A stretch of 49,153 nt of DNA from Bacteroidia bacterium (GTDB lineage Bacteria; Bacteroidota; Bacteroidia; 2-12-FULL-35-15): assembly GCA_038258655.1 (NCBI GenBank), contig JBBSPS010000003.1, positions 1 to 49,153 on the forward strand, given 5' to 3'. A program made the position numbers and the translations under genes. This document shows positions 19,905-49,153 of this stretch, one piece after another; the stretch's first letter is position 1, and each line of letters begins with the position of its first letter. Below the pieces are notes generated by a model. It did not search any database, was not told the DNA's origin, and saw only the letters and a program-made list of their open reading frames with translations.

Positions 19905-19920
19905 CTTTATGAATATAAAA

Positions 19921-19953
19921 CAACCACCAAGTCATAAAGTGACTTGGTGGTTG
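19921..19953 (-). terminator. Hairpin (terminator/attenuator or RNA-stabilising) between precursor and gwsG
   Basis: Perfect 14-bp stem CAACCACCAAGTCA/TGACTTGGTGGTTG with a 5-nt loop, followed by TTTTAT on the minus strand. Confidence 0.75.
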
Positions 19954-19958
19954 GATTA

Positions 19959-33606: not shown

Positions 33607-33625
33607 CTTAAGTTGTCTTATTGAT

Positions 33626-34507
33626 TTACTTTCTAATCAAATTATAATTTTTAAATTCTCCAATATGCAAACCGGTTTTTTGATAAATGAAATTTAAAAT
33701 TCTTCTTCTCACAGATGTTTTAATTCCTTTTGTAGGATCAAATGTAAAAGTCCAGTTAAGGCGTTTTAAACGTTGTTCCATTACTTTAGGATGTGTATCG
33801 GTAAATTTTGCAAGTGAATCTATTTTAGAATAATCAAATTCATCAACCTTAGGAATATTTTCTTCCACCCACTTATCATCATGCCATAACTTATGAAATT
33901 CCATTTGTTTACGCTGCATCGCATCAGGTGATTTTACCCAGCCGTAATGATATATACAGGCATCCACATAAGCGACATCCAATTTCACATCATTTCCTTT
34001 TCTGAAACTCATCGCATCTTTATAGGAATAAATAGTTGGATCATTTCGTACCACACGAATTTCTTTTTTCTGCCAATGCCTTGAATCTGCTATATAATCA
34101 TATGATCCATAGAAATTCAAATGATCAAATACTAACCCATCAATTTTTTTATCATCCTTATACTTGATCATTCCATTTTTAATGTTTTCTAAATATTTTT
34201 CATGGATCACTTCATCGCCCTGGATGTAAAATGCCCAATCGCTATCAGCTGAAATAGCTTTGAACGCTTTATTTGTTTCATCCGACAATACTTTTCCTCC
34301 TTCACGCAAAGTTTCATCCCAAACAGTTTCTAGGATTTTTATTTTAGGAGAGTTAATGGATTTTATATAGGCCAATGTTTCATCATCCGATTTCCCAACA
34401 GCCACAATAAACTCATCACATATCGGCAAGATAGAAGTGATGGCTTCAATTACAGGATAATCAAATTTTAAGGCGTTTTTTATAAAAGAAAATCCTGATA
34501 CTTTCAT
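33626..34507 (-). CDS. Glycosyltransferase family 2 protein
   Basis: SGFSFIKNA, YIQGDE and IYHYGWV motifs. Confidence 0.8.
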   Translation of the reverse strand: MKVSGFSFIKNALKFDYPVIEAITSILPICDEFIVAVGKSDDETLAYIKSINSPKIKILETVWDETLREGGKVLSDETNKAFKAISADSDWAFYIQGDEVIHEKYLENIKNGMIKYKDDKKIDGLVFDHLNFYGSYDYIADSRHWQKKEIRVVRNDPTIYSYKDAMSFRKGNDVKLDVAYVDACIYHYGWVKSPDAMQRKQMEFHKLWHDDKWVEENIPKVDEFDYSKIDSLAKFTDTHPKVMEQRLKRLNWTFTFDPTKGIKTSVRRRILNFIYQKTGLHIGEFKNYNLIRK

Positions 34508-35268
34508 TTAGTTTGTTTACTTGAAAACAATGATTTTAAAAATGAAGGATAAAAATAATTTCCACTCACTTTATTTTTAAAACTCATCAACGTAGTTTTA
34601 GGTGTTACTTCAATTCTGCGTATTTGAAAATAATCTTCACCAAATTGTTTCGGCCCCGTATTAGTAGATACAGCATATAAATAACCGGTTTTCTTCGTTG
34701 TTTCCTTTACGGATTCATTTATCCCGCCAAAAGGATAAGCAAAACTTATTACCTGTTTATTTATTAATCGCTCCACATCTTCTTTACAACCTTTAATCTC
34801 TTTTATTCGTTCATTTTCCGAGCATTTTGTAAGATCAACATGTAACTGAGTATGCCCGCCCATTTCAATGCCATAATCACCCATCTCTTTCACTTGTTCC
34901 TTCGTCATCATATTCACTCTTGGTTCGCCCTCTCGAACTCCCCAAGCATTGTGGTCAACTTGCGTAACAAGATAAATAACTGCTTTGAATTCATATTTTT
35001 TCAATATCGGAAATAGCAAGAAGTAATTATCTTCATAACCATCATCAAAAGTTAATATTATTTTTTTATAAAGATCCATTGAAGGATCTTGTTGGAAATC
35101 AAAAAAAGTAATGGTTTGATATCCGCTGTCTTTCAAATACTTCATTTGTTTTTCAAAATCCTTTTCTCGAACATACACTTTATGTTTTCCTGTTACGGAT
35201 TGCGCATTTACAATGCGATGATACAAAAGAACAGGTAAACTGTAAGATATATGTTTATTAATTGACAT
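34504..35268 (-). CDS. Polysaccharide deacetylase (CE4)
   Basis: VLLYH, LTFDDGY, GGHTQLH and FAYPFG motifs. Confidence 0.88.
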   Translation of the reverse strand: MSINKHISYSLPVLLYHRIVNAQSVTGKHKVYVREKDFEKQMKYLKDSGYQTITFFDFQQDPSMDLYKKIILTFDDGYEDNYFLLFPILKKYEFKAVIYLVTQVDHNAWGVREGEPRVNMMTKEQVKEMGDYGIEMGGHTQLHVDLTKCSENERIKEIKGCKEDVERLINKQVISFAYPFGGINESVKETTKKTGYLYAVSTNTGPKQFGEDYFQIRRIEVTPKTTLMSFKNKVSGNYFYPSFLKSLFSSKQTK

Positions 35269-35284
35269 TCCTATTATTTATTTA

Positions 35285-35375
35285 GTACGTGATTGCGAGG
35301 GCTTTTTCGTTCTAACCACTCTCGCAACACCAAGAGGAGTGAGGTTGCTTCAGTTGTGCCTCCTTCGCTATGACG
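35285..35375. repeat. MITE/REP-like palindromic element, copy 1
   Basis: GTACGTGATTGCGAGGGCTTTTTC...GAGGTTGCTTC...TTCGCTATGACG; matches the copy at 36641. Confidence 0.65.
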
Positions 35376-35384
35376 CTTCGTGAT

Positions 35385-36014
35385 TTACCTTTTCAACAAA
35401 TTCAATTCAATTTTCAATTTAATATCGCAATGCTTAATAATGATATTACCCGGAAAATCATTTTTATAATCATTCAATGTAAAAATAGTTTTTTTTATCC
35501 ATTTTTTAGAATGTTCAATTTTTACAAGATGTTGAGATGCCTTTTCCTTGAAATAATAATTGTACCGATCATCAAAATGTATTTGTTTAATGTCATATAA
35601 CCCTTTTTTATCTGTTAAAACAGCTACAGGCTTTCCACTTAAATTATTCATCAATAATATTTCAATATCATGTTGTATTGTTTTTAATAATAATGGACGG
35701 TTAAATTGAGGAACACAATAATGCAGCGTAAATGCAGTGTCTTTAAATTCAAAATCAAATAATTTCATTCCTAATTCGGTAGTAAATATCACACGATAAT
35801 CATTGGGCTGAAGTTGCTTAGTAACGAGCAAACCGCTAAAGTGTTTTCCGTAAACATGAATATTTGTTTTGAATAAAAATGAATTGAAATTATCACCAAA
35901 AAAAGGTTTAGGAGCAGACGTGTTAGAATCAGACATTCTCAACCGGCCATAATGGCCGAGGGTACATCCGGCAAGAATGATCGCAATTAAACTACTTAAT
36001 AATAAATTTTTCAT
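35385..36014 (-). CDS. Hypothetical lipoprotein of flexirubin-type clusters
   Basis: Lipobox LAGC; FSGLLV and FTTELGMKLFDF motifs; follows the LolA-like gene. Confidence 0.7.
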   Translation of the reverse strand: MKNLLLSSLIAIILAGCTLGHYGRLRMSDSNTSAPKPFFGDNFNSFLFKTNIHVYGKHFSGLLVTKQLQPNDYRVIFTTELGMKLFDFEFKDTAFTLHYCVPQFNRPLLLKTIQHDIEILLMNNLSGKPVAVLTDKKGLYDIKQIHFDDRYNYYFKEKASQHLVKIEHSKKWIKKTIFTLNDYKNDFPGNIIIKHCDIKLKIELNLLKR

Positions 36015-36627
36015 CGCCTATTGGCTGATTAGTTTTGCGATTGATAAACTCAATGCCGGTATAATCATCACCCGGTTCAGTCATTTTTACTTTTACTACC
36101 GCATAATCTGTTTTATCAATATAGAGATAAATACTTTTTAAAAAATCCTTGGCGGCTTTTTGGGTTGGAGTTAATTCCAATAAATATTGTTTATCATTTT
36201 CATAGAATTGAACTTTGTAATCTTTACTATTTAATAGATTCCCCTGAACAGTATTCACCATCATCTCATTGATGCTCTTAAACATTTTATTAGAGTTGAT
36301 ATCATACTTACTTACTTTTCCATTATCCTTGATAAACATCTTGTCTTTATTGATAGCGATTAAATAGCTATATGGATCAGTATATTCCCATCTGAGCATA
36401 TTTACTTTTTTAAAACAAAAATGCCCTTTACTGATAATTTTTTCAGACATCACACTCAAATATTTTTCCTGGACAAAATCGCTTTCAATGGAGTTGACCA
36501 ACTTTGATTGTGTTTCCATTTTTTGTTTGAAAGCTAATGTATCTTTCACAAGTTTGAAGCCTACGGGCATTTGAGCCAATAAAATTGCAGGTAAAATAAA
36601 CAAGTATATTAAAAATGCTTTTTTCAT
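35992..36627 (-). CDS. LolA-like outer-membrane lipoprotein carrier
   Basis: SDFVQEK and LRWEYTDPY motifs; signal peptide. Confidence 0.85.
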   Translation of the reverse strand: MKKAFLIYLFILPAILLAQMPVGFKLVKDTLAFKQKMETQSKLVNSIESDFVQEKYLSVMSEKIISKGHFCFKKVNMLRWEYTDPYSYLIAINKDKMFIKDNGKVSKYDINSNKMFKSINEMMVNTVQGNLLNSKDYKVQFYENDKQYLLELTPTQKAAKDFLKSIYLYIDKTDYAVVKVKMTEPGDDYTGIEFINRKTNQPIGDEKFIIK

Positions 36628-36640
36628 TTATTATTTTTTA

Positions 36641-36726
36641 GTACGTCATTACGAGGGCTTTTTCTTCCGAAACAATCTCATTTTACTAGTTGAGATTGCT
36701 TTGTTCTTTTCTCACTCGCAATAACG
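36641..36726. repeat. MITE/REP-like palindromic element, copy 2
   Basis: GTACGTCATTACGAGGGCTTTTTC...CAATCTC...GAGATTGCT...CTCGCAATAACG. Confidence 0.65.
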
Positions 36727-36727
36727 T

Positions 36728-37507
36728 TTATTCATACCCTTTAATTTTTAATAACTCCTCCACACTTACAATTTTAAAGTCATTCTCTTTAACAAAATTA
36801 AGTGTTTGCTTTAACACTTCGATAGTTTTATCAGAAGTATCATGAAACAAAATAATAGCTCCCGGCTTTAGTTGCGTTTGTACCCGTTTTACAATAGTTT
36901 CTATGCTATCCCTTGTTGTATCCATTGAACGGATATTCCAGCCAATGGTATAATATTTTAATGCTTTCACCGCTTTGGAAATATTCGGAGTAGTAACACC
37001 ATAGGGCGGACGAAATAATTTCATTCGTTTACCGATTATGTTATAAACTGTATCTGATGTAGCATCTAACTCATATATAAATGCAGGTACTCTTTTAAAG
37101 TCAACAAAAAGCGAATGACTGAACGTATGATTTCCAATTGTATGGCCGGCTTTATCCATTTGTTTAAGTAGGTTTTCATTCCCTTTGATCTTTTTGCCGA
37201 TCACAAAAAAGGTTGCAGGGGCATTATATTTTGATAACATTAAAAGTACTTTAGCAGTATATTCAGCATTCGGGCCATCATCAAAAGTGATGGCAATCAG
37301 CTTTTCTGAGGTGTTTGAATTACAATATGTTTTTACAAAAAAACTGGATTGGATATTTGCCGAACCGTAAATGATAAATGCTTTGTAAATTATTATCGGT
37401 AATACTATCCACCATACACTAATCCCGAAAAAATAAATCGAGAGGATTACATCTAAGAAGATAATAATAAAAGCGAGAGTTGTTGATCTGAAGGTCATTT
37501 GATACAC
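36728..37507 (-). CDS. Polysaccharide deacetylase with N-terminal TM (flexirubin-cluster type)
   Basis: ITFDDGP, GNHTFSH, FRPPYG and ILFHD motifs. Confidence 0.88.
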   Translation of the reverse strand: MYQMTFRSTTLAFIIIFLDVILSIYFFGISVWWIVLPIIIYKAFIIYGSANIQSSFFVKTYCNSNTSEKLIAITFDDGPNAEYTAKVLLMLSKYNAPATFFVIGKKIKGNENLLKQMDKAGHTIGNHTFSHSLFVDFKRVPAFIYELDATSDTVYNIIGKRMKLFRPPYGVTTPNISKAVKALKYYTIGWNIRSMDTTRDSIETIVKRVQTQLKPGAIILFHDTSDKTIEVLKQTLNFVKENDFKIVSVEELLKIKGYE

Positions 37508-37513
37508 CGACAG

Positions 37514-37900
37514 TTAGGTCCATTGTTGTTTTGCCTTGTACTTTTTTAGTCCTTTATCTCGAGTGATTAATATTAAATCCTCAGAAATTGCTTGAGAAAT
37601 AATTAACCTGTCAAAAGGATCACTATGATGATTCGGTAATTTTGATAATGTTACAAGATGATCGTATGTTATTGGAACAATCTCTATTTGATTTCTGTCC
37701 GCATAATCAAATAATTCTTCAAGAGAAATATTTAAAGTCAATTTACCAATTTGCTTTTTGATAGTGATTTCCCATAAACTTACTGCACTCAAAAAACAAG
37801 ACTGATGAATATCCTTTATTTTGTCCCTAATAGATACCGGCAATTGAGCATCACCTGAAACAAACCATAAAAAAGCATGAGTATCAAGTAGGAAAGCCAT
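37514..37900 (-). CDS. vapC: Type II TA system PIN-domain toxin
   Basis: LLDTHAFLW, SLWEI.IK and HHSDPFDRLIISQA motifs. Confidence 0.92.
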   Translation of the reverse strand: MAFLLDTHAFLWFVSGDAQLPVSIRDKIKDIHQSCFLSAVSLWEITIKKQIGKLTLNISLEELFDYADRNQIEIVPITYDHLVTLSKLPNHHSDPFDRLIISQAISEDLILITRDKGLKKYKAKQQWT

Positions 37901-38103
37901 TACGTGTAGCTTTTAAATTCTTCCAATGGGTCGTCAAAATCAGAGGCAAGTTTTATTTTACCTTTAGCGAAGCCGAACTCACGAGATTTAAGTTTAGATT
38001 TTGTTTTTGATTTTGTTTTCAAGAATTCAACAAAATCAGCTACTTCTTCCCTGATGGCTTTAGGTAACGAATTGATTTCTATTTTTAAAGAAGTATTTGT
38101 CAT
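37900..38103 (-). CDS. DUF2281-type antitoxin
   Basis: INSLP...EVADFVEFL and REFG.AKGKI...DFDDPLE motifs; 1-nt overlap with the toxin start. Confidence 0.85.
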   Translation of the reverse strand: MTNTSLKIEINSLPKAIREEVADFVEFLKTKSKTKSKLKSREFGFAKGKIKLASDFDDPLEEFKSYT

Positions 38104-38200
38104 GTGGTAAATTTACGAAAGATAATTCATTTTTCAAAAATATAGAATGTCTTTGAAATATACTCGTACCACTATCGCTTCCACAAAGCATAACTAATAA

Positions 38201-39262
38201 TTAAATATTCGAGAGTAAATACACTGAATGATCTGCATCTAAAAAAGTATTGTAAATAAGTATATTTTTAATTGACGTATGATTATTTTCGTCAATTAAT
38301 ACTGCTTGTGGAATGGTTTGTTTTTTCAACATCATCGCTGCAAGCCACAAAGCAAAGCTTCCGGAAGTTTGATATTCTCCACACAAATGTTTAAAATAAG
38401 TTGATGTGCTTTTTTTGAAATAGTTATTTTTTAAATTATAATAGGTCTTATCAAAACGCGCATCACCATTTATTCCATAAACCACCACATCAATATCATT
38501 TGCTGTTAAGCCTTTTTCTTTTAAGAATTCTGAAACTTTATTTTCAATTTCTGAATTGTTTTCAGGTTTGTAAATAGTTTTTACTCCGCGAAGTTTAGCG
38601 TAACTATTTCTACTTGCCTCATAACTTAAAACAAAAAATGCAGCGCCTTCTCCGGCAATACTACCATTGGTTTTGCTATTGATTAGTCCTATCGTAGAAA
38701 CAGTTTCTTTTTTCCAATATCCAATCCGGTCACAAACACGATAATATTTATCTGTCATTTCATCGTGTCCACCGATTAATACATTTTTTGCGCCTTCAGC
38801 AATTGTCATCCAACCATCCAATACAGCGCTCTCAAAAGAAAATCCTTTATGGACATATGTGAAATTATAATTCATACACTTTAGCTGCAAAGCGATTTGC
38901 GCACTTACAGTATTGTGAGTAGATTGTATAAATGCAGTAGGAGTAAGGAATTGTTCATCATTTTCAATGATAGCCAATAAAAACTTTTCCGTGTCTTCCA
39001 AGCAACCAAGAGCAGTTCCTGTCATTATCGCATCTGGTATTTCAATGCCTGCATCTTTAAAACAAACTGTGGATGCGGCAATACTCATTTTGATGATGCG
39101 AGCCATTCTTCTTGCCATCGTAGGGTTTAGGAAATCTTTATAAGAAGGTTCTATACAACGCAATGAATTAGTATTATGCTCAATAACATCAGATAAAAAA
39201 TCGGTTGTATCAAATGTTTTCTGCGGAGAAATTATTCCTATGCCGTTGATGTAAGCTTCCAT
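38201..39262 (-). CDS. Beta-ketoacyl synthase chain-length-factor-like protein
   Basis: LTPTAFIQSTHNT and GEGAAFF motifs; no TAC catalytic Cys. Confidence 0.85.
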   Translation of the reverse strand: MEAYINGIGIISPQKTFDTTDFLSDVIEHNTNSLRCIEPSYKDFLNPTMARRMARIIKMSIAASTVCFKDAGIEIPDAIMTGTALGCLEDTEKFLLAIIENDEQFLTPTAFIQSTHNTVSAQIALQLKCMNYNFTYVHKGFSFESAVLDGWMTIAEGAKNVLIGGHDEMTDKYYRVCDRIGYWKKETVSTIGLINSKTNGSIAGEGAAFFVLSYEASRNSYAKLRGVKTIYKPENNSEIENKVSEFLKEKGLTANDIDVVVYGINGDARFDKTYYNLKNNYFKKSTSTYFKHLCGEYQTSGSFALWLAAMMLKKQTIPQAVLIDENNHTSIKNILIYNTFLDADHSVYLLSNI

Positions 39263-39314
39263 TTATAATTATTGCCTTATAAAGGTTAAAAACCTGTGAT
39301 ACTATTTCCACAGG

Positions 39315-40523
39315 TTAAGAACCTGCGCTACGTGAAAAAATTAATGCTGAAGTATTTCCTCCAAAACCAAAAGAATTGGACAACACATGATCAATAGTTT
39401 TATCAGTAACCATTTTTTGTGTGGGGACAAAACTAAGCTCAGTCATTGGATGTACATAATTTAAATTCGGATACACCATATTGTATTTGATCGCCAGAAC
39501 AGAGAATACTGCTTCAATTCCGCCACACGCGCCTAATGTGTGTCCTGTAAATGTTTTTGTAGAACTAATAAGCGGTACATTCTTATTGAACATGCGATCA
39601 ATTGCAGTTCCTTCAGACAGGTCGTTTATTTGTGTTCCTGTACCATGAGCATTGATGTAATCAATGTCATTCGGCTTTAATCCACTTACTTTGAAAGCCT
39701 TTTCCATCGCAAGGTATGCGCCGGCGCCATCAGGTGAAGAAGCAGTTTGATGATACGCATCATTTGAATTTCCGTAGCCGGAAAGTTCACAAAATATTTC
39801 TTTTCCTTGTGCAGCCTTTTCGGATTCAATAATAATAAAACCGGCGCCTTCTCCGAGATTTAAACCTTTTCGTTCTGCATCAAATGGTTTGCACTGTTCT
39901 TTATCTAAGATCATCAAGGTCATAAAACCGTTGATGGTAAAACGTGATAGAGAATCGGCTCCACCAACAATCACACGATCCAAAATACCATGTTTTATTA
40001 ATCGTGCGCCAAACATAATGGAATTTGCGGAAGAAGAACAAGCGGTACTGATAGTAGATAAATAATCTTTAACACCTAATTGATCGGCAATAAATTCTGT
40101 ACTATCACCACATTCATGAGCTTCAATGTATTTTAGCCAGTCACCCAATTTTTCAGGGTTCAAATAATCTATCCACAGATCTTCCGTCATTCCCATTCCA
40201 CCTACGCTTGTGGCGGAAATAATTCCTGTCCTAAATTCTTTTATATTTTTTATGCCGGCGCTTATTACAGCTTCCTTTGCTGCTATAGCACCCAGAAGCG
40301 CTGTTCTTGAAGTTTTCGTATCAGCAGGCAATCCGGCTAATTTTATTAATTCTTCATTCGTTAATTTCACTTCACCAACCGGAACATTTTCTTTATGACG
40401 GGTTCTGATATTATTCAATTCGCCAATGCCTGATCTTTGTTGGTTAAAAGAATCAAGTGTTTCGGCTACATTGTTTCCAATAGCAGATATTATTCCGAGG
40501 CCGGTTACTAAGATTTTACTCAT
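39315..40523 (-). CDS. Beta-ketoacyl-ACP synthase (aryl-polyene/flexirubin KS)
   Basis: STACSSS, INAHGTGT, GHTLGA and SNSFGFGG motifs. Confidence 0.92.
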   Translation of the reverse strand: MSKILVTGLGIISAIGNNVAETLDSFNQQRSGIGELNNIRTRHKENVPVGEVKLTNEELIKLAGLPADTKTSRTALLGAIAAKEAVISAGIKNIKEFRTGIISATSVGGMGMTEDLWIDYLNPEKLGDWLKYIEAHECGDSTEFIADQLGVKDYLSTISTACSSSANSIMFGARLIKHGILDRVIVGGADSLSRFTINGFMTLMILDKEQCKPFDAERKGLNLGEGAGFIIIESEKAAQGKEIFCELSGYGNSNDAYHQTASSPDGAGAYLAMEKAFKVSGLKPNDIDYINAHGTGTQINDLSEGTAIDRMFNKNVPLISSTKTFTGHTLGACGGIEAVFSVLAIKYNMVYPNLNYVHPMTELSFVPTQKMVTDKTIDHVLSNSFGFGGNTSALIFSRSAGS

Positions 40524-40601
40524 GATTCATTAGGCAGTTATTCAATAGACAGTAGGCAATTAAATGTATATTGTCTACTGAACAATTGTTTAATTGCCGA
40601 A

Positions 40602-40856
40602 TTATTTCTTATTCGCTTTAATAAATTCTGCCATGGTACGTATCGATTGAAATATTTTTTTTCCATCAGCAGGGTTCGCGATCTTAATTCCGTAATTTTT
40701 TTCTAATAGTACGATCAGCTCTAATGCGTCAATAGAATCTAATCCAAGCCCTTCGCCGAAAAGCGCTGCATCGTTATCAATGTCTTCCTTTTTTACATCT
40801 TCTAAATTTAATTGTTCGATAATTTCGCCCTTCAGTTGATCAATTAATGCATCCAT
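40602..40856 (-). CDS. Acyl carrier protein
   Basis: LFGEGLGLDSIDALEL motif. Confidence 0.93.
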   Translation of the reverse strand: MDALIDQLKGEIIEQLNLEDVKKEDIDNDAALFGEGLGLDSIDALELIVLLEKNYGIKIANPADGKKIFQSIRTMAEFIKANKK

Positions 40857-40866
40857 AGTTTTTATT

Positions 40867-41493
40867 TTATTTATATAATTTATTTAATTGTTCTGTAGTG
40901 TGTTCTATATTTAATTCTGCCGGTTGTTTTTCAACTGTATACAAAAATGCTTCGTATTTATTTTTATAAAGATCAACCCAACCGGTGATGCAGCATTGCG
41001 CTTTTTTGCTATCCAAAAGAGAGTTAATATACGAACTCATAAAATCAGCATCAAATTTATCAAATATAAAAAAAGAATTCTCTCCTTTTATACTATTTTT
41101 TATGGCAATCTCACCTATTAAAATATTAGGTAAGGTATATACAAATACGGCCGGACTGGGAAAATAATTGCTTTTGTCAGAAATAGTTGACTGATGCACG
41201 GTATCTACCTCTAATGAAGACGCACTGTTAGCAATAATTATAGCAATGTCTTCGGATTTATATTTATCAGTTATTTTATTCTCTTTCAGCAATAATTCCG
41301 ATGCAATAAATGCTAATTTACAAAGGCTGTCCATTTTAAAAAACTTTGGATAAGCCAATTGATAGTGCTTATATGCCAATTTTAAAAAATCAACAGCCTC
41401 CGTTTCAATGTTTGTATAAGAGACGGCATCATTAACCGCCATCTTACCTGACCTTATTTTACAACTAGCTGTTATGTAATTTTTTGTACTCAT
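40867..41493 (-). CDS. KS N-terminal-like protein (flexirubin cluster)
   Basis: YPKFFKMDSLCKL and PSPAVFVYTLPNI motifs. Confidence 0.85.
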   Translation of the reverse strand: MSTKNYITASCKIRSGKMAVNDAVSYTNIETEAVDFLKLAYKHYQLAYPKFFKMDSLCKLAFIASELLLKENKITDKYKSEDIAIIIANSASSLEVDTVHQSTISDKSNYFPSPAVFVYTLPNILIGEIAIKNSIKGENSFFIFDKFDADFMSSYINSLLDSKKAQCCITGWVDLYKNKYEAFLYTVEKQPAELNIEHTTEQLNKLYK

Positions 41494-41495
41494 TT

Positions 41496-42668
41496 TTATT
41501 CCGCGCTTTCCTTTTGAAACAATACTGCTGCATTACAACCACCAAAGCCTGCGGCTGTTTTAAGGCAGGTATCAATAGTTGCCTGTTGTGTTTCCTTAAT
41601 AATATTAATGGATTTTGAAACCCCTAATTCACTAAAATTATATGTTCCAATCAATGTATTTTCTTGCATGGAATGAATACCTATAATAGATTCAATAATA
41701 CCCGCAGCACCTAACGTATGGCCGAAATAACTTTTTAAACTATTCATAGGAGTACTAGCAAGATTTGCATCTGTAATTGCAAGCGATTCCATTTCATCAT
41801 TAAATAATGTGGCTGTGCCGTGCCCGGAAATATAATCCACTTCGGATGGTTTTACATTCGATTCTTTCAATGTTTTTTCGATAGCGAGCAAAAGCCCGTC
41901 CCCTGTGCGTGATGGACCTGAAATGTGATTGGCATCATTGGAACTTGCACCACCTTTTACAGCAATTAGTTGTTGGATGTTGGTTGCTAGTTGTCGGTTA
42001 TTGGTTAAAACAATCGTTCCACAACCTTCACCTAATGATATTCCATCGCGTGAAGCATCATAAGGTTTGCAAATCTGAGTACTAATTGCTTTAAAGGATT
42101 GAAATCCTGAAACAACAAACTCTGTTAGAATATCTACACCTGTTACAATAATGGTATCGTATTGATCATTTTCGAGTAATCGTTTTCCTAAAATAATGGC
42201 TAAAACACCTGAAATACAAGCATTCGAAACAATCAACGGTTTATTTGGATTACTGAAATAGTTAGCGATCAAGCTTGCTGTTTCCCAAAGATAAACTCGT
42301 TTTTTATCAAATTTAGAAGCCTGTGTAGCATCTAACAGGTCAATGTTCCCTTTTGTTGTAGATAAAATAAAAAGTGTTTTTTTACTTACAATATCAATAT
42401 TCGAATTTTGTTTTAACGCATTCTGTATAGATAATATCACCAGTTTTTCCAAACGCGTGTATTCTTGTTTTGGATTTAATTTTTGAAATTCAGAATTTAT
42501 TTTTTGCGAATCGATAATTGCAGCGGAAAATGGTTCGCGTGAAAGGGCAGAGTTTTCAAATCGTTGAACACCGGTTTGCATTTTTTTGAGCTTCTCAAAA
42601 TTTTCAGAGCTCGTAAAACCGAGAGGAGAGATAATATTATCGGCGGTTATGTATGTTGTATGTTGCAA
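41496..42668 (-). CDS. Beta-ketoacyl synthase (start probably TTG 42668)
   Basis: SNACISG, DANHISGPSRTG, HGTAT.FNDEME and GHTLGAAG motifs. Confidence 0.9.
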   Translation of the reverse strand: MQHTTYITADNIISPLGFTSSENFEKLKKMQTGVQRFENSALSREPFSAAIIDSQKINSEFQKLNPKQEYTRLEKLVILSIQNALKQNSNIDIVSKKTLFILSTTKGNIDLLDATQASKFDKKRVYLWETASLIANYFSNPNKPLIVSNACISGVLAIILGKRLLENDQYDTIIVTGVDILTEFVVSGFQSFKAISTQICKPYDASRDGISLGEGCGTIVLTNNRQLATNIQQLIAVKGGASSNDANHISGPSRTGDGLLLAIEKTLKESNVKPSEVDYISGHGTATLFNDEMESLAITDANLASTPMNSLKSYFGHTLGAAGIIESIIGIHSMQENTLIGTYNFSELGVSKSINIIKETQQATIDTCLKTAAGFGGCNAAVLFQKESAE

Positions 42669-42693
42669 ATTCAGAATTATAAATTTATTTAAT

Positions 42694-43971
42694 TTAGGGC
42701 CTTTTTGCTTTATTGTAAAAATAAGCAATGCCAATCGTTAAAATGAAGAATAATACCAGTTTCAGCAAATAAGGAAAAATGCTGTGAATAGTTCCGTTGC
42801 TTAAAAAAACAGTTTGAAAAGCGCTTAATCCCCAGTAAAGAGGAGAAAATTCAGACAACATTCGGATTGAATCGGGCATCACATACACAGGAACCCAGAT
42901 ACCACCAAGTGCCGCTAAAATAATTACAGATACAGCTCCAAATGTAGAGGCTTGCTGATGCGTATTAAATAATGTACCCACTAACACTCCGTATCCTGTT
43001 GCGGCTAAACCACTACACATGGCAATTACAATGATGGCTATGGCGCTGGAACCAATTACTAATGTTGGTAAACCAAACAGTGGTAAAAAATAAATACCAA
43101 CCAATAACATTAGGAAACATTGAATCATGCAAATAAAAAGGTAAGCAGAAATTTTTCCGGTTAACACCGTAATGTAAGAGCCTGGCATGGTAAGTACACG
43201 AAGGTAACTTCCGTCCTCACGCTCTTTGATAATGCTACCTGCAAGGGAGATCACTATAAAAAACATTCCGAAGATGGTCCAGGCGGGAACATTATGCTGC
43301 ACAGAATTCAGTTCAAAATTTTCATTTTTCCTTCCGGTTGCGTCTTGTTCCTGAAAATTAACAAAATCTGCAATCGGCTCAGCGGCAGTAGTTTCAGTTT
43401 CCGATTTATTTAATGAGTTTTTAAAAAAAGAAAGTAATGTTTGAGTTTCCAGTTTAGATGAAAATTGTTTTAATGAACTGAGTATGGATGACTGGAATGA
43501 TTTTTTTGTGCCCGGAGCAAAGTAAATAATAATGTTTAGTGCTGTATCTGGAAGTGTAATCGCTGGTTTTGTAGAATCCGAAAGTCCAATACCTGCAAGA
43601 GTTTTTGAAACAAAACTATTCACTTTTGCATTTAATTTTTGAGTGGCGTCAGCAGGAATAATAATCCCAATTTCGTACTTACTACTCGCAATACTTTGTT
43701 TTGCTTCACTTTCAGAAATTGCCGTGGCATTGATCGCAAATATTTTTGATCCTTTCAGGTCTGCTTCAATTGTTTTTCCTAATGTACTCGTGTCATTATT
43801 TACCAACAACAATGGTATTTTCAACTCCTGATAATCGCGGAAAGGCGTATCCTGGATTAATGACATAATGGTGATCATTGCCATCGGCATTAAAAAAAGT
43901 ATGGCAAGCCCTGCCTTATCCCGCACTAGGATCAGTAATTCTTTTCGTATAGTTGAGAGTAATCGTAACAT
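42694..43971 (-). CDS. ABC-2 type transporter permease
   Basis: KELLILVRD..GL..LFLMP, VQHNVPAW and ALGGIWVP motifs. Confidence 0.9.
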   Translation of the reverse strand: MLRLLSTIRKELLILVRDKAGLAILFLMPMAMITIMSLIQDTPFRDYQELKIPLLLVNNDTSTLGKTIEADLKGSKIFAINATAISESEAKQSIASSKYEIGIIIPADATQKLNAKVNSFVSKTLAGIGLSDSTKPAITLPDTALNIIIYFAPGTKKSFQSSILSSLKQFSSKLETQTLLSFFKNSLNKSETETTAAEPIADFVNFQEQDATGRKNENFELNSVQHNVPAWTIFGMFFIVISLAGSIIKEREDGSYLRVLTMPGSYITVLTGKISAYLFICMIQCFLMLLVGIYFLPLFGLPTLVIGSSAIAIIVIAMCSGLAATGYGVLVGTLFNTHQQASTFGAVSVIILAALGGIWVPVYVMPDSIRMLSEFSPLYWGLSAFQTVFLSNGTIHSIFPYLLKLVLFFILTIGIAYFYNKAKRP

Positions 43972-44073
43972 CCAATTATGTAATTATGCAGTAGGCAATT
44001 TTCTCATTTAACAACTAAGTATTTATTTAAATTCTCCATTGTTGAATTGCCGACTCTTAATTGCCTGCATTTT

Positions 44074-44823
44074 TTAATCTCGCAATTTCTTTCCTGTTAA
44101 TTTTAAAAACAACTGTTCTAAATTCCCTACTGAATGTTGCGCGATCAACTTTTTTGGTTTTCCCCTTTCAATAATTTCACCGTTATCAATAATAGCAATA
44201 TCCGAGCATAAATTTTCGGCTTCCTCCATTAAATGTGAAGTATAAATAATTGTCATTCCTTGTTTATTAAGCTGATGCAAATGTTCTGTAATTACATTGC
44301 GTGATTGAACATCCACGCCTACTGTCGGTTCATCCAAAAATAAAATTTCTGGTTGATGCAAAATACCCGCGATCAAATTTATTCTGCGTTTCATTCCTCC
44401 TGAAAACGTTTCAATACGTTTATTTGCATGCGTTTGCAATCCAACTATTTCAAGATGTTCATTAATTTTTTCTTTTAGGTTTTTGCCTTTCAGTCCATAC
44501 ATATTTCCAATGTATTGAAGATTCTCAAATGCTGTAAGAGTAGGGTACAGTGCAATTTCTTGGGGAACAACCCCAATAATGTGTTTTATTTTTTCAAGAT
44601 GTTGAGAGAGCAATAGATCATTAATTTTTACATCTCCACTCGATGGTTGTAATAATCCGCAAAGGATAGAAAGTATAGTTGTTTTACCTGCTCCATTTGG
44701 CCCTAATAAACCAAAAATACTCCCTTTGTCAACTGTAAAAGAAATACTATTGATGGCAGGATGATCAGCTCTTTTATATATTTTACTAAGTTGGTCTATC
44801 TCAATTACAGTACAAATGGTCAT
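44074..44823 (-). CDS. ABC transporter ATP-binding protein
   Basis: GPNGAGKT, FSGGMKRR and LDEPTVGVD motifs. Confidence 0.93.
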   Translation of the reverse strand: MTICTVIEIDQLSKIYKRADHPAINSISFTVDKGSIFGLLGPNGAGKTTILSILCGLLQPSSGDVKINDLLLSQHLEKIKHIIGVVPQEIALYPTLTAFENLQYIGNMYGLKGKNLKEKINEHLEIVGLQTHANKRIETFSGGMKRRINLIAGILHQPEILFLDEPTVGVDVQSRNVITEHLHQLNKQGMTIIYTSHLMEEAENLCSDIAIIDNGEIIERGKPKKLIAQHSVGNLEQLFLKLTGKKLRD

Positions 44824-44937
44824 TAAAAATAATTGTTGAATAAATAATTGTTAATTTATCAATCCAAAATAACAAAAACTACCGTAAATAATAGCAAATA
44901 TAATCAAAGTAATTCCTTAAGGTCAAAACAAAAATTT

Positions 44938-45016
44938 ACCGTTAAATAAATAAATCGACCGTTAAATAAAATTTGAACTGAAAATTTTGGAAAAGTAAAT
45001 TTAAACTGTATGTTTG
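44938..45016 (+). promoter_or_regulatory. Promoter of RiPP cluster 2 with an upstream 13-bp direct repeat
   Basis: ACCGTTAAATAAA at 44938 and 44958; TTTG 44986-44989, 19-nt spacer, TATGTTTG 45009-45016. Confidence 0.6.
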
Positions 45017-45127
45017 AAACAAATTTTGAAAATTGATACGTAGCAATTATCTAAATTTTAGAAGTGGCTAATATCCTAACACTTAAAAAAATGGATTATA
45101 ATTATTAACAATTAATTTATAAACAAA

Positions 45128-45313
45128 ATGGGTACAGACAAATTAATGAATGCTTTTGAAGCATTTAAGGTAAAAAACCTAGAAGAAGTAAAAGGTGGCT
45201 ATTATAGGGTCACTTGGACAAATGGTAGTGGACTTTGTGATATTCTAAATACTGAAACGGGCGTGGAATATTGCAATCAGGCTGATAATTACTCAGCTGT
45301 TGGACCTGCATAG
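45128..45313 (+). CDS. RiPP (graspetide) precursor peptide, 61 aa, double-glycine leader
   Basis: MGTDKLMNAFEAFKVKNLEEVKGG-YYRVTWTNGSGLCDILNTETGVEYCNQADNYSAVGPA; first gene of an ATP-grasp/SPASM cluster. Confidence 0.85.
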   Translation: MGTDKLMNAFEAFKVKNLEEVKGGYYRVTWTNGSGLCDILNTETGVEYCNQADNYSAVGPA

Positions 45314-45356
45314 CATTTCTTTTTTAATAGCAAAGTAATTAAGCATGCTTTAATAC

Positions 45357-45397
45357 AACCAACGATTATAAATTTTTATAGTCGTTGGTTTGTTTAT
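45357..45397 (+). terminator. Hairpin after precursor 2
   Basis: AACCAACGATTATA/TATAGTCGTTGGTT stem (one G-U pair) followed by TGTTTAT. Confidence 0.65.
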
Positions 45398-45417
45398 CGA
45401 AGTTAACAAAAGATTTT

Positions 45418-46632
45418 ATGAAAAAATATTGTTTAATTGTTTTACTTGTATGTTCTAATCTCCTATTTAGTCAAAATAAGATTGTTCTAAATCGAATAGC
45501 CGAACCAAGTTTATTAGAACTTCTCAATGCCAGTAATGCTTTAATATTGTTTAATTTAAATGACCCTTTTTTTTCCTCAACAAAAAATAAAATTGTGTTC
45601 CCTGCTATTGATTTTATTCCAACGGATACAGCATTTTCATTGCTCTCCAAAAAATCAATTGGAAATTCAAGAATTACAGATGAAAAATTTGTTCTGGTTT
45701 TTAACTACAAAACAAAAACACCTGTTATTTTTGGCTCAAGCATTCCTGATTTTACAAATTCACGGGGAGTTATTTTAACCCCTGAGAAGACGGTTTCCTT
45801 GCAACTTAAAACTGTAGATAATGGGATGATTAAATATTTTATAACAAATGAAAAAAAACAATATTTACAATCAAGCAGTATTCCTCATTTAGATGCTTCA
45901 CCAATCGACCAATCCTTTTGGTTAACATTGAAAAATAATTATACTAAAGCAGGTGACTTTGGTACAAAAAAAACAGCTTTTTCCATTGCAGTTTCTGATA
46001 TCAATAACAATGGCATTTTTAATGATGTCGGAATTGATAAAGTGTTTATTGGTAATGAGAATCAAAAGTATTTTGAAATATATGATAATGAAAATAATTA
46101 CAACTCATGTATTTTAAAACCAAACATAATTTTTGAATCTTGTGGGAAAAAATTTATATTTAATAAGATAGATCCTGATGGTGAAGCTGTCTATTTTAGT
46201 CCCTATTCAGGTGAAAAGGAAAGCGATATTAAAGAACTAAAAAATATTCCCGATTTTAATTTTATCACATTTAAGGGCGACACAACATCAATTCTTAAAC
46301 TAAAAGAGAAAGGCAAATATTTGTATATTGATATATGGGCGAGTTTTTGTAATCCTTGTATAAAGGATTTATCAATTTTTGAAAATTTACAGAAAGAATA
46401 TAAAGGTAAAATTACTATTTTAGGCTTAGTAGATAAGGTTACTATTTTAGAATTGACAAATTTAATAACTAAGTATAATATAACTACACTACAAGGATTA
46501 TCTTCTTCTGAGATTAACAAAAAATTATTATTAAGTGGTTACCCACATGGAATTTTATTTTCTAAGGATGGTAAATTAATTAAAATGAAAATGAATTCTA
46601 CTGAACTTACAACATTTTTAAAAGAGCATTAA
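45418..46632 (+). CDS. Exported protein with C-terminal TlpA-like thioredoxin domain
   Basis: Signal peptide from ATG 45418; IPDFNF, IDIWASFCNPC and GYPHGILFSKDGK motifs. Confidence 0.8.
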   Translation: MKKYCLIVLLVCSNLLFSQNKIVLNRIAEPSLLELLNASNALILFNLNDPFFSSTKNKIVFPAIDFIPTDTAFSLLSKKSIGNSRITDEKFVLVFNYKTKTPVIFGSSIPDFTNSRGVILTPEKTVSLQLKTVDNGMIKYFITNEKKQYLQSSSIPHLDASPIDQSFWLTLKNNYTKAGDFGTKKTAFSIAVSDINNNGIFNDVGIDKVFIGNENQKYFEIYDNENNYNSCILKPNIIFESCGKKFIFNKIDPDGEAVYFSPYSGEKESDIKELKNIPDFNFITFKGDTTSILKLKEKGKYLYIDIWASFCNPCIKDLSIFENLQKEYKGKITILGLVDKVTILELTNLITKYNITTLQGLSSSEINKKLLLSGYPHGILFSKDGKLIKMKMNSTELTTFLKEH

Positions 46633-46644
46633 TGTTAAGCGTTT

Positions 46645-47546
46645 ATGATTTTTATTTTCGGTCTGCATAATGATAGGTCAACAATTGATGTACTAAATTG
46701 GATCCGCAAATTAGAAATAACTAGTGTGCTAATAACTGATTTGAAAGAACTTCAACAACATTTTTGCACTATAAAAAATAAGAAAATTAAAAGTATTTGG
46801 TATAGACAACATAATGAGATTCGATTTGAGAATTTTTGTATTACAAAGAATGAAAGATCATTTCTTTATTTTGAATATGAATATTATTTGAATTTTATTC
46901 AGTCCTCCTTAAAGAATATACGAACATTGGGTGGAGGTTTTGATAAAATGAATCTTAATAAATACCAAACCTTAAATGAGGCCAATAATATTGGTCTACT
47001 CACCCCCTCCACTATCATCACAACATGCAAAAAAGAATTAAAAGAATTTCATTATACATTTAAAAAAATAATAACAAAGCCAATTTTTAATGGCATATCA
47101 ATTGATTTAAACAATGAATATCTTGGTATAATGTATACCTCAATTGTGGAGGAAGAATTGATAAATTCTTTACCTACAACTTTTTTTCCAAGCTTATTTC
47201 AAGAATATATTGAAAAAGAAATTGAATTGCGTATTTTTATTTAGACGGGAAATGCTATTCAGCGGCAATATTTAGTCAGTCGAAATACAATGTGGTAGAT
47301 TATAGGGACAAAGATAAAATAAGAAATCCTCGTACCATTCCATTCAAATTACCTAAAAATATTGAAGATAAACTTGTTTTACTCATGAAGCAATTAAATC
47401 TCAATACAGGTTCAATTGATATAATAAAGACGTTTGATGGTCGTTACGTGTTTTTAGAGGTAAACCCCATTGGTATATATGATGAGATTTCAATAAATTG
47501 TAATTATTACCTTAATAAAAAAGTCGCTGAGTGGTTAACTAACTAA
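46645..47546 (+). pseudogene. gwsG: Grasp-with-SPASM ATP-grasp maturase (cluster 2), split by a 1-nt frameshift
   Basis: ORFs 46645-47244 and 47292-47546 join if one T is added to the T5 run at 47234-47238, giving ...EIELRIFYLDGKCYSAAIFSQSKYNVVDYR...FLEVNPIG, colinear with cluster-1 gwsG. Confidence 0.85.
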
Positions 47547-47555
47547 TACTCTAAT

Positions 47556-47738
47556 ATGAAAATAGAAGATGTAATTAACAAAGAAATATTAGAGAAGTTA
47601 CCTGTTTTATATAGAACGCTCACAATTAGAGAGAAAAATAAAGATGTTACCAATCCACAAAAAATAAAATATTTTACGATGGCTCAACCGTTTTACAAGG
47701 CAACCATTTTACCTTTCAATTTTAATAGTAATGAATAA
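47556..47738 (+). CDS. Small hypothetical protein between gwsG and gwsS
   Basis: 60-aa ORF filling the gap and overlapping the gwsS start by 8 nt. Confidence 0.7.
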   Translation: MKIEDVINKEILEKLPVLYRTLTIREKNKDVTNPQKIKYFTMAQPFYKATILPFNFNSNE

Positions 47739-48765
47739 ACTATACTTTAAATTATTTTCAAATTGTGTTCCTGTTAAAGGTTATAGCCAATCCATTATTT
47801 ATGATTTACAACTTTCTAATTTTGAATACATTCCAAACTTATTATTTGATATACTTATTATCAGCGATGAGATGCCTGTCTCAAAGATTAAAGATTATTA
47901 CAATAATGAATATGATGATGGGATAGATAATTATTTAAAATATCTTGAGAGTAAAGAATATGGATTTTTTACATATGAACCTGATTTATTTCCTAAAATG
48001 GATTTATACTGGGACAACGCTTTTGAGATAACAAACCTTATAGTAGAAGATAATTTCCAACTTTTATTAAAATCTAATTTGTCATTGAATGTAGATAATC
48101 TTACCATAATATATAGTAGTTTCGAAAATACTACCATGCCTAATTTGCAAAAACTATTAGGGAACATTAATTGTCAATCTACTCAGTTTTTTATTTTATA
48201 TAATAAGGATATACAGAAAATAATAGATGAGTTGTGTTATACTTTAAAAAAAATAACTCAAATTGTTATTTATAATGCTCCAGAAAATGTTAAAAAAACA
48301 TATGGAATACTTGATGTTACATTTATTACTAAATCTTTTCAATTCACAAACACTTCAAATGTTAATTTAAATTATTTTTCACCTAACATATTTATTTATA
48401 CTGAATCTCAAAACCATCATACATATTTTAATCGCAAATTATATATAAACAAAAAAGGCGAAATTAAAAATTCACCAGAGAGCCCATATGTTTTTGGAAA
48501 TCTTGAAGATATAAAAAACGATGTAGAATTACGAGATTACATAAATAATCCTAGTTTTCAAAAATTATGGCATATAACAAAGGATAAAACATTTGTTTGT
48601 AAGGACTGTGAATATCGTTTTATGTGCGTGGATAATCGTATTCCGAAGACCATTAACAATGAAACATGGTTTCATGAAACTGAATGTAATTATAACCCAT
48701 ACATAGCTAAATGGAAAGGAGAGCATGAATATAAATCATTACTAGAATGTGGAGTCATTATATGA
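47731..48765 (+). CDS. gwsS: Grasp-with-SPASM SPASM-domain maturase, divergent form (cluster 2)
   Basis: YFKLFSNCVPVKG..SIIYDLQ, HHTYFNRKLYI, CKDCEYRFMCVDNR and CNYNPY motifs. Confidence 0.85.
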   Translation: MNKLYFKLFSNCVPVKGYSQSIIYDLQLSNFEYIPNLLFDILIISDEMPVSKIKDYYNNEYDDGIDNYLKYLESKEYGFFTYEPDLFPKMDLYWDNAFEITNLIVEDNFQLLLKSNLSLNVDNLTIIYSSFENTTMPNLQKLLGNINCQSTQFFILYNKDIQKIIDELCYTLKKITQIVIYNAPENVKKTYGILDVTFITKSFQFTNTSNVNLNYFSPNIFIYTESQNHHTYFNRKLYINKKGEIKNSPESPYVFGNLEDIKNDVELRDYINNPSFQKLWHITKDKTFVCKDCEYRFMCVDNRIPKTINNETWFHETECNYNPYIAKWKGEHEYKSLLECGVII

Positions 48766-48801
48766 AATCACTTTGAAAACATAAAATTTATTTATAACCA
48801 A

Positions 48802-49153
48802 TTACACAAAATTATTTACAGGCTCATTATCTTTTTTCAAAAATATTTTCATTTCGCATTCTGCAATGATTTCACCATTGAGTGTAGTTTTTCCACTAAT
48901 CAATGTAACATCAAATACAATATGTTGAATGCATACTTCAGTTCGCAATTCGCTACCAATTTTAGGCAACTGATGAATTGCTAATTTCTTTATAGCTCCT
49001 ATATATCCGACAGGAGGGTTTACTTTTTCTCCGTTCTTTTCCATTAAGGAAACAATGTACCCAACTCGAAGTGCAGCTGTTTGTGCAATATTTTCAATGA
49101 TTCCGGGTTCACGAAAAAAACCGTCTTCACAAAAAATAGTATTCTCTTTGATA
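48802..49153 (-). CDS. Hotdog-fold 3-hydroxyacyl-ACP dehydratase-like protein (5' end beyond the window)
   Basis: Frame is open to the window edge: IKENTIFCEDGFFREPGIIENIAQTAALRVGY...PVGYIGAIK...LP. Confidence 0.8.
   Translation of the reverse strand, partial: IKENTIFCEDGFFREPGIIENIAQTAALRVGYIVSLMEKNGEKVNPPVGYIGAIKKLAIHQLPKIGSELRTEVCIQHIVFDVTLISGKTTLNGEIIAECEMKIFLKKDNEPVNNFV

Follow-up and report, generated by a model that had tools for sequence, protein, structure and literature searches.

A TlpA-carrying grasp-with-SPASM cassette with a frameshifted gwsG lies inside a flexirubin-type gene cluster of a Bacteroidia bacterium

The stretch of DNA analysed here (the window; 49,153 nucleotides) is the entire contig JBBSPS010000003.1 (C3) of the Bacteroidia assembly GCA_038258655.1 (G000), a genome of 4.30 Mb in 436 contigs with a completeness of 92%. 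We take this genome to be a metagenome bin, that is, a soil metagenome-assembled genome (MAG), and the best match for the window DNA among sequencing runs was a soil-metagenome run flagged as a possible source of it. Close to the right end of the window, a group of genes occupies positions 45128–48765 of the plus strand, where it separates the dehydratase gene from the ABC-ATPase gene of a flexirubin-type pigment cluster encoded on the minus strand. In order, these genes encode a precursor peptide, a TlpA-like protein, an ATP-grasp protein, a small protein and a SPASM-domain protein, and the coordinates and strand given for each of them in a preliminary description of this DNA were borne out. 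This gene set is that of a grasp-with-SPASM (gws) locus, which is named after the ATP-grasp protein GwsG (TIGR04192) and the SPASM protein GwsS (TIGR04193) and encodes the pathway of a peptide that is synthesised by the ribosome and then modified post-translationally (RiPP). As these systems are described in the two papers, gws, which is specific to Bacteroidota, corresponds to “branch 5” of the ATP-grasp classification (Makarova et al. 2022, PMC8939145) and to the RODEO graspetide “group 14” (PMC13097080).

The flanking minus-strand cluster (33241–44823) includes ketosynthase (KS)-like genes, an ABC permease and the ABC ATPase. Its LolA2_flexi and LolB2_flexi equivalogs scored 225.7 bits (cut-off 125) and 153.2 bits (cut-off 60), respectively, and together with the KS-like, dehydratase and ABC genes, all on the minus strand, they identify the cluster as flexirubin-type, in agreement with the earlier assignment. 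The left flank of the gws genes is the ABC-transporter ATPase (44074–44823, minus strand; NCBIfam ABC ATPase families), whose orthologues in congeners are 70–78% identical. The right flank is a FabZ-like 3-hydroxyacyl-acyl carrier protein dehydratase gene (48802–49152, minus strand), which is truncated by the end of the contig.

The segment between these two genes that would represent inserted DNA measures at most 4005 nt (44824–48828), counted from the ABC-ATPase start codon to the last dehydratase codon common to relatives. We searched 67 congeners for the ABC ATPase and obtained matches at E ≤1e-60 in 51, a tally that counts the unpublished genome G053; synteny was then compared in the best 29 of these 51 matching loci, one per genome and none from G053. 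In 27 of the 29 loci the dehydratase gene directly adjoins the ABC-ATPase gene. Spacer lengths in these congeners extend from −11 to 482 nt around a median of 9 nt, and most spacers are shorter than 15 nt or are overlaps with the dehydratase stop codon intact, as opposed to 3978 nt in the window; this points to a lineage-specific insertion. The empty site that the preliminary description had led us to look for in relatives was therefore found, and relatives that carry the cassette at this position were not encountered: tblastn detected gws or TlpA-like matches at the junction in none of the 29 congener loci. Four of the congener spacers (L029, L030, L035 and L049) measure 138–482 nt and contain what appears by eye to be palindromic repeat-like sequence.

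The edges of the segment could be placed closely. When the dehydratase is aligned with a relative, similarity is lost at 48829, and the window protein carries eight additional codons (NEPVNNFV) compared with three relatives that end in KIFLKKD*; the dehydratase stop codon has been replaced by the insertion (48802–48828, minus strand), which leaves the protein eight residues longer. On the other side, the N-terminus of the ABC ATPase is conserved. The insert thus appears to have taken the place of a spacer of a few nucleotides.

The first gene of the cassette (45128–45313, plus strand) encodes a precursor peptide of 61 residues with the leader MGTDKLMNAFEAFKVKNLEEVKGG. The leader ends in VKGG and is followed by a core of 37 residues that contains two Cys, five Thr, two Ser, two Asp and two Glu. 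The gene is adjacent to the enzyme genes, and its Gly-Gly leader end and the combination of Thr/Ser with Asp/Glu in the core are those of a gws precursor. No Pfam or NCBIfam model matched this peptide (E ≤0.01 and 0.001). Four homologous precursors were nevertheless identified in three other loci that have the same gene set as the window, namely one in a Bacteroidia MAG (L059), two in an uncultured Chitinophaga MAG (L058) and one on a metagenome contig (L153). These peptides share the leader DKLMDAFKAFE...KGG and the core motif (S/T)(W/Y)x(N/S)GxG..D...C. The Cys-containing core of 37 residues named in the preliminary description is thus confirmed and belongs to a conserved precursor family. 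Between the precursor gene and the enzyme genes lies a 15-bp hairpin with a U-rich tail (45357–45390, plus strand), a candidate terminator or attenuator. The 111 nt that bear it (45310–45420) have a folding energy of −24.5 kcal/mol (z −4.2), and none of 200 shuffled sequences was as stable; among four terminator-like sites, this hairpin was the only one located between genes of the cassette.

The second gene (45385–46632, plus strand) encodes a TlpA/redoxin-like protein (Pfam Redoxin, 28.1 bits; cut-off 26.6). The open reading frame (ORF) comprises 415 codons, and the protein likely starts at the ATG at 45418, giving 404 residues. It is composed of an N-terminal hydrophobic, signal-like start (judged by eye), a domain of ~270 residues that belongs to no family and a C-terminal third with a thioredoxin fold and a CNPC motif, both Cys of which are invariant in all six relatives compared. 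Scores against the ResA model NF002854 (43 bits; cut-off 170) and the TlpA model NF047696 (24.9 bits; cut-off 230) remained below equivalog level, and we therefore refer to the protein as TlpA-like and not as TlpA. The structure model of this protein was discarded because of its mean predicted local distance difference test (pLDDT) value of 52.2, and an Atlas look-up of the N-terminal part returned no usable match. A word-based search had suggested that the family is very rare, with a single close relative; this idea was dropped when a profile search gave 72 representatives at E ≤1e-30. By BLASTP, the TlpA-like protein showed no similarity to the 300–430-residue accessory proteins of the other gws loci of this genome (best E 0.12). 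We presume that those accessory proteins are members of “cluster 23”, a family of secreted lipoproteins, and no such gene is present in the cassette.

The ATP-grasp gene consists of two ORFs in different frames, a feature that was absent from the first reading of the sequence. The N-terminal piece (46645–47244, plus strand) encodes 199 residues and ends at a TAG codon created by the frameshift; it matched TIGR04192 with 85.4 bits over model positions 2–217. The C-terminal piece lies in the −1 frame (47238–47546, plus strand; listed ORF 47292–47546) and matched the same model with 103.3 bits over positions 238–318. TIGR04192 was the best family for both. Based on the sequence, its three-frame translation and tblastn with intact homologues, the reading frame is lost in a run of T at 47234–47238 (plus strand), which has one base too few to encode ELRIF-YLDG. 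Homologues whose frame is intact across the break read IELRIF(Y/F)LDG, as opposed to ELRIF followed by I and a stop codon in one frame of the window and YLDGKCYSAAIF in the −1 frame, with one T of the run belonging to both readings. When the gene was read through the stop codons, it scored 81.7 and 139.8 bits, so that no intact GwsG reaching the TIGR04192 cut-off of 230 bits is encoded here. The two halves are 51% (N-terminal) and 63% (C-terminal) identical to the intact GwsG of L059, and no other lesion was found. We considered programmed frameshifting at the T-run and rejected it after inspection of the sequence, which contains no X XXY YYZ heptamer; the break is therefore read as a mutation or as an error or polymorphism. 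We regard a recent inactivating mutation as the likely cause, and an error or a polymorphism as a considerably less likely one. On this basis, we classify the locus as a gws cassette by descent in which gwsG appears to be disabled.

The window contains a further gws cluster (17593–20102, minus strand), 25 kb away. Its precursor (19959–20102, minus strand) has 47 residues, a leader ending in KGGG and a Cys-free core of ~18 residues, and there is no accessory gene between this precursor and gwsG. The preliminary description had called the cassette the second gws cluster, and that numbering holds for the window; in the genome as a whole there are at least nine gws loci, with eight intact gwsG genes, nine gwsS genes and additional fragments. 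Apart from the neighbouring cluster (C3:17593–20102), gws loci were found on contigs C17, C214, C239, C255, C7, C189 and C236, and decayed pieces on C23 (18034–18581), C72 (11544–11738) and C333. These loci show several architectures, with accessory proteins of ~400–430 residues and TPR-like or OmpA-like neighbours. For one genome of 4.3 Mb, this repertoire is unusually large and is turning over.

Sequence comparisons set the cassette apart from these loci. The identity of its GwsS to the paralogues, and to proteins of 24 congeners and of 16 further genomes from the class, does not exceed 37%, and the nearest GwsS among 5.8 billion proteins is 47–48% identical. Taken together, GwsS and GwsG show 32–37% identity to the paralogues versus 46–57% to foreign loci with the same TlpA-containing architecture. 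These are the three loci introduced above, L059, L058 and L153, in all of which gwsG is intact (299–306 residues), and a fourth related locus is known from its GwsS and TlpA-like proteins alone (P0002 and P0122, which share a longest contig of 6968 nt). When trees were built from 89 rows for GwsS and 83 for GwsG, the window copies joined L059 and L058 with support values of 99 and 100, respectively (SH-like approximate likelihood ratio test), and the neighbouring cluster fell in a separate clade. Approximately unbiased (AU) tests were performed on subsets of 24 GwsS and 23 GwsG rows under LG+G4; the pair tested had been named beforehand in the preliminary description, though the large tree was seen first. 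A sister relationship of the two window clusters was rejected both for GwsS (delta lnL 178.6, p 8.9e-12) and for GwsG (delta lnL 64.9, p 1.0e-3). The earlier observation that the two clusters are diverged and lie about 25 kb apart is therefore upheld, and their GwsG/GwsS pairs are not the sister branches that a recent duplication would have left. Along with the empty sites in relatives, this kinship supports the proposal that the cassette was acquired independently, from outside the other gws loci of the genome.

The cassette has a GC content of 27.0% compared with 34.4% for the genome, which ranks it at the 0.14th percentile among 5892 equally long windows, and the AT-richness noted previously is thus real. 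Its individual genes have 25–27% GC (percentiles 0.3–1.1 of 2005 long ORFs), and GC at third codon positions is ~19% in the TlpA-like gene and gwsS. Signs of mobility were not detected. Family searches of every ORF in 44824–48828, including two on the minus strand, yielded no integrase, transposase or conjugation family, consistent with the earlier statement that integrases and transposases are absent. No tRNA was found at the cassette, Rfam gave no matches at E ≤0.1 and the edges are no richer in terminal or flanking repeats than the AT-rich region elsewhere. The segment accordingly does not have the features of an insertion sequence, a transposon, an integrative conjugative element or an integron cassette.

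The region between the ABC-ATPase start and the precursor ATG (304 nt) contains several candidate control elements. A tandem 12-mer, ACCGTTAAATAA, is present in two copies 20 nt apart (44938–44969, plus strand) and represents a candidate regulator site, with near-identical pairs at four other places in the genome (C214:935–966, C36:18258–18289, C142:10469, minus strand, and C154:5969, minus strand). The pairs in this genome precede a gws precursor, ORFs with SprB/type IX secretion system tails, a subtilase operon and an XRE regulator. Exact pairs were found in three of the 67 congeners (G058, G066 and G083) and in none of the sequences of a reversed control; in G066 the pair precedes a response regulator that looks LytTR-type by eye. 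Based on this distribution, a small regulon may use the paired repeats as its operator. The alternative that the motif marks the end of an insertion sequence was discarded, as the transposase-like ORF beside the C154 copy is single-copy and is absent at the other motif sites. This ORF (3482–4027, minus strand, of L140, which is C154:2500–8500) is DDE transposase-like, has 181 residues and a possible upstream partner ORF, occurs once in the assembly and adjoins the XRE gene that carries the motif.

Two sites in this region match the Bacteroidetes promoter pattern, which we take to be TTG-N18-21-TAnnTTTG. One of them, TTG-N21-TATATTTG (44895–44926, minus strand), is a consensus match only; it lies inside the insert and faces the ABC-ATPase gene. 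The other, TTG-N19-TATGTTTG (44987–45016, plus strand), is likewise a consensus match, starts 18 nt past the tandem motif and faces the precursor gene. The pattern occurs 13 times in the 49-kb window and twice in the 304-nt stretch, and 5% of shuffled versions of this stretch give at least one match. A scan for sigma-70-type promoters was uninformative, with 32 sites versus 35.9 expected from shuffles. Directly before the precursor ATG, positions 45053–45130 (plus strand) align by blastn with the counterpart upstream of the C214 precursor (C214:1265–1344; 79% identity in an 81-column alignment), although the enzymes of both loci are merely ~32–37% identical. The two loci may have a 5′ leader or promoter module in common here. 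The promoter-region elements were all absent from the surroundings of the 83 external gws loci, L058 and L059 among them.

The spacers of 9 nt in relatives indicate that the pigment genes are almost certainly co-transcribed there, which is likely the ancestral state, and from this we infer that an antisense insert of 4 kb must alter the expression of the ABC gene and the genes downstream. Because of the promoter match in the insert that faces the ABC-ATPase gene, a re-wiring of the downstream pigment genes would be as likely as their silencing.

We consider it likely, on balance, that a gws RiPP cassette of ~4.0 kb, belonging to a TlpA-carrying subtype, was inserted in the dehydratase/ABC spacer in this lineage alone, that its gwsG is broken and that the locus probably no longer makes a cross-linked peptide. 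Since gwsG carries a lone one-base frameshift, the cassette would probably be a very recent pseudogene-bearing locus. Several observations weigh against parts of this reading. The synteny rests on 29 of the 51 congeners with matches, and in two of the 29 (G003 and G082, loci L136 and L137) unrelated genes lie next to the ABC ATPase; the dehydratase/ABC junction is changeable among relatives. The insertion can be dated solely as later than the split from congeners whose ABC ATPases are 70–78% identical. The gws genes on C239 and C214 are nearly as GC-poor as the cassette, so that AT-richness fits accessory RiPP loci generally and is weak evidence of foreignness. The promoter region has its matches within this genome, whereas the foreign relatives gave none, and the cassette is therefore not a wholly foreign, simple import: its coding part is foreign to the other gws loci of the genome, and its control region is of the host's own kind, either swapped in by recombination or evolved in place. 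Finally, the frameshift is supported at ~7-fold depth in one sample that is probably the source of the assembly, the gwsG halves are otherwise intact, and the base call at this position may reflect an error in the consensus or a variant carried by a smaller or larger part of the population.

These last points would also be expected if the cassette were fully functional and made a disulfide-containing graspetide, with the frameshift being an assembly or sequencing error or a variant carried by part of the population. The lesion is single and located in a homopolymer, the halves of gwsG are well conserved and contain no further stops, and the remaining genes of the cassette are all intact. We nevertheless think this doubtful. 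A Logan contig of run X1, produced by an independent assembler (depth 7.1), spans 43500–47949 with no differences, frameshift included, which shows that the break does not stem from a single assembly program; X1, however, is probably the sample from which the assembly was made. Identical cassette fragments are present at low depth in two runs from other studies (X2 and X3), the contigs of which leave the frameshift site and the right junction uncovered. The homopolymer is also short (T5), and short-read errors are uncommon at runs of this length. In addition, the decayed pieces on C23, C72 and C333 demonstrate that such loci do decay in this genome. The preliminary description was thus right about the cassette and its precursor, whereas its statement that a graspetide is made has become doubtful with gwsG frameshifted as assembled. 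It is very improbable that the site held the cassette ancestrally and that the relatives have lost it. The longer spacers of a few relatives and the two rearranged junctions do indicate a changeable site, yet the genes are adjacent in nearly all of the relatives compared, tblastn detected no gws remnants in any of the 29 loci, the search of 24 congeners and 16 further genomes from the class gave no GwsS that exceeds 37% identity, and the dehydratase extension occurs in the window alone. An origin by duplication of one of the genome's other gws loci, with later divergence, would be in keeping with the presence of close families among these loci (C17/C239/C214 and C255/C189/C236) and with the two upstream non-coding elements that the cassette has in common with the C214 locus. 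We judge it to be most improbable in view of the closer identity to foreign TlpA-bearing loci, the AU rejection of sisterhood with the neighbouring cluster and the lack of a counterpart of the TlpA-like gene in the other loci. Equally hard to credit is an assembly chimera that would place the cassette outside the pigment operon. The MAG is fragmented, and the contig stops 351 nt beyond the dehydratase stop codon, but Logan contigs of X1 bridge both junctions with no differences (depths 7.1 and 5.4), an identical contig of X2 spans the left junction (44755–44889), and the N-terminus of the dehydratase was found on contig C140, where the reading continues in frame.

Turning to the remaining enzymes of the cassette, gwsS (47731–48765, plus strand) encodes a SPASM-domain protein without a radical-SAM motif. 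It matched TIGR04193 with 190.6 bits (cut-off 175) over model positions 1–333 of 342, which identifies it as the SPASM-domain maturase GwsS. The structure predicted from a 73-row alignment had a pLDDT of 94.6 and a predicted template modelling score of 0.88. Residues 4–80 of the model resemble a RiPP recognition element (RRE): 77 residues could be superposed on a lasso-peptide B1 protein with leader, at a Z score of 10.5 and a root-mean-square deviation of 2.0 Å; stand-alone RREs of this type include PDB 6JX3 and 5V1U. The model also resembles the RRE-radical SAM-SPASM maturases CteB (PDB 5WGG; residues 10–323, Z 10.1, 277 aligned), TigE (PDB 8VPO; Z 10.1, 300 aligned) and SuiB (PDB 5V1Q), with Foldseek probabilities of 0.95–1.0 for these three proteins, and BtrN (residues ~96–323, Z 10.2, 171 aligned). 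As modelled, GwsS is composed of an RRE, a radical-SAM-like barrel and a Cys-rich SPASM-like end. A PDB sequence search with the GwsS profile returned solely the designed protein 7UEK (E 9e-6, a repetitive match), which was not used.

Despite this predicted fold, GwsS differs from radical-SAM maturases in its Cys content. The CX3CX2C motif of the SAM-cleaving cluster is present in none of the 73 aligned relatives, the window copy included, and the only invariant Cys are the C-terminal C290, C293, C299 and C319; C12 is present in 66 of 73. Consequently, the usual radical chemistry is not expected of GwsS. Pfam SPASM (PF13186) matched 26 of the 73 relatives at E ≤0.01; the window copy falls below this threshold and keeps the four invariant Cys. 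Where the window copy has V121, S248 and S251, most members of the family carry additional Cys, and the subfamily to which this copy belongs lacks them.

Directly before gwsS, and overlapping its start, lies a small ORF (47556–47738, plus strand) that encodes a protein of 60 residues with the motifs LPVLY and FYKATIL. Based on its position and motifs in 44 aligned loci, we assign it to the LPL family. The alignment of the 44 ORFs shows a conserved LP motif and an FYKPIS-like end, and at least 90% of the ORFs retain P16 and K48. Makarova et al. described the LPL family from branch 5 loci, where its gene immediately precedes the SPASM gene, and proposed a role as a PqqD-like chaperone (PMC8939145). 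Prediction of a GwsS–LPL complex gave a score of 0.84 compared with 0.00 for the best control; among solved complexes, 116 of 157 attained this mark, compared with 2 of 215 pairs that were mismatched, counts that are rough because our own alignments were used here. Prediction runs agreed in at least 30% of contacts, and the pLDDT of LPL in the complex was 40–47, so that its fold is uncertain. The confident predicted contacts join LPL residues 43–58 to the lining of the GwsS barrel (residues 102, 225, 232, 236, 249 and 300 among them), and none was predicted in the RRE. Solved structures with a peptide in the barrel exist (SuiB, CteB and ChlB), and part of the score may reflect likeness to these. 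The prediction supports a putative binding of LPL to GwsS, and on our reading of the model the RRE would serve the precursor leader and LPL, either a partner or a second substrate, would plug the barrel.

More speculatively, these elements can be combined. GwsS would be a scaffold derived from a radical-SAM enzyme and not itself a radical enzyme, and the FYK(P/A)(I/T) tail of LPL would fill the barrel that was once the active site. GwsS and LPL could then form an obligate pair that presents the peptide to the ATP-grasp enzyme, or LPL could be a second substrate of GwsS that lacks a GG leader, and the cassette could belong to a host regulon through the ACCGTTAAATAA repeats and now be a promoter source for the flexirubin genes. 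We put this forward as a tentative proposal.

For a cassette of this type with its gwsG intact, the individual steps of the pathway are inferred from the families involved. The precursor would be held through its GG leader, GwsG would cross-link the side chains of Thr/Ser with those of Asp/Glu by ester or amide links, and GwsS and LPL would act on or hold the peptide. A C39-peptidase ABC exporter encoded elsewhere, for which the genome has three genes, would cleave after GG and export the product, and an exported periplasmic TlpA-like protein would oxidise or isomerise the two core Cys. Regardless of the state of gwsG, the insert also brings a divergent promoter region with host-specific regulator sites, and transcription of the downstream pigment genes probably now starts within the insert. 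The chemistry of each step, the role of the TlpA-like protein and the use of the promoters are all presumptive.

In most respects the locus corresponds to branch 5 as described, with an ATP-grasp gene, LPL directly before the SPASM gene, a GG-leader precursor, a Bacteroidota host and a Cys-bearing core among diverse cores. According to PMC8939145, nearly every branch 5 locus encodes the secreted lipoprotein of cluster 23; the cassette, by contrast, has a TlpA-like oxidoreductase in its place and a frameshifted gwsG. A TlpA-like partner of branch 5 is not mentioned in the main text of that paper, and its supplements may list a redoxin neighbour. Group 14 is described as always co-occurring with a SPASM protein (PMC13097080), and in the published sources consulted in part we found no gws (branch 5/group 14) product described as chemically characterised. 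The closest relatives, L059, L058 and L153, have one or more precursors, a TlpA-like protein of ~410 residues, GwsG, LPL and GwsS, as the window does; they differ from it in their genomic surroundings and in upstream DNA without the motifs of the window, and L153 differs further in having its genes on two strands and a core with one Cys. The TlpA-like protein shares a thioredoxin fold, a CxxC motif and a hydrophobic signal-like start with the periplasmic thiol-disulfide oxidoreductases TlpA and ResA, and is distinguished from them by its extra conserved N-terminal region and by scores far under the equivalog cut-offs.

Two other systems invite comparison. The rosaritide cluster, as described in PMC13097080, is a graspetide cluster with strictly co-occurring partners that look non-catalytic (MirB–MirC); its partner is a peptidyl-prolyl isomerase-like chaperone unrelated to LPL or GwsS, and we offer partner dependence in gws systems as a hypothesis. 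In Porphyromonas gingivalis, gwsG/gwsS clusters are described as cargo of integrative conjugative elements (bioRxiv 10.64898/2026.08.04.741601). The present case is alike in that a gws cluster behaves as horizontally moving accessory DNA, and unlike in that the cassette is bare, with no conjugation, integrase or transposase genes and no transport genes attached. The locus is, then, an ordinary branch-5/group-14 member of a TlpA-associated subtype, independently acquired and probably recently disabled.

Elsewhere in the window, a 570-residue ORF (14473–16185, plus strand) combines a BluB-like N-terminal part (TIGR02476, residues 2–197) with a full CobT (TIGR03160, residues 234–560). It is an apparent BluB-CobT fusion among cobamide lower-ligand genes.

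The copy of the cassette described here is probably dead, which limits its direct value. It raises structural hypotheses for its family, namely an RRE in GwsS, the absence of a radical-SAM cluster and an LPL tail in the barrel, and it draws attention to a candidate regulator site common to peptide and secreted-protein loci. It also defines a subtype that is compact, has a TlpA-like oxidoreductase of its own and shares a conserved family of precursors; the subtype is known from four related loci, in three of which gwsG was seen intact, and would be a tractable target for heterologous expression. As gws loci are common in Bacteroidota, a bare cassette of 4 kb that arrived in the middle of an operon, with exact edges, offers a clean natural case that bears on how RiPP cassettes may move without mobility genes.

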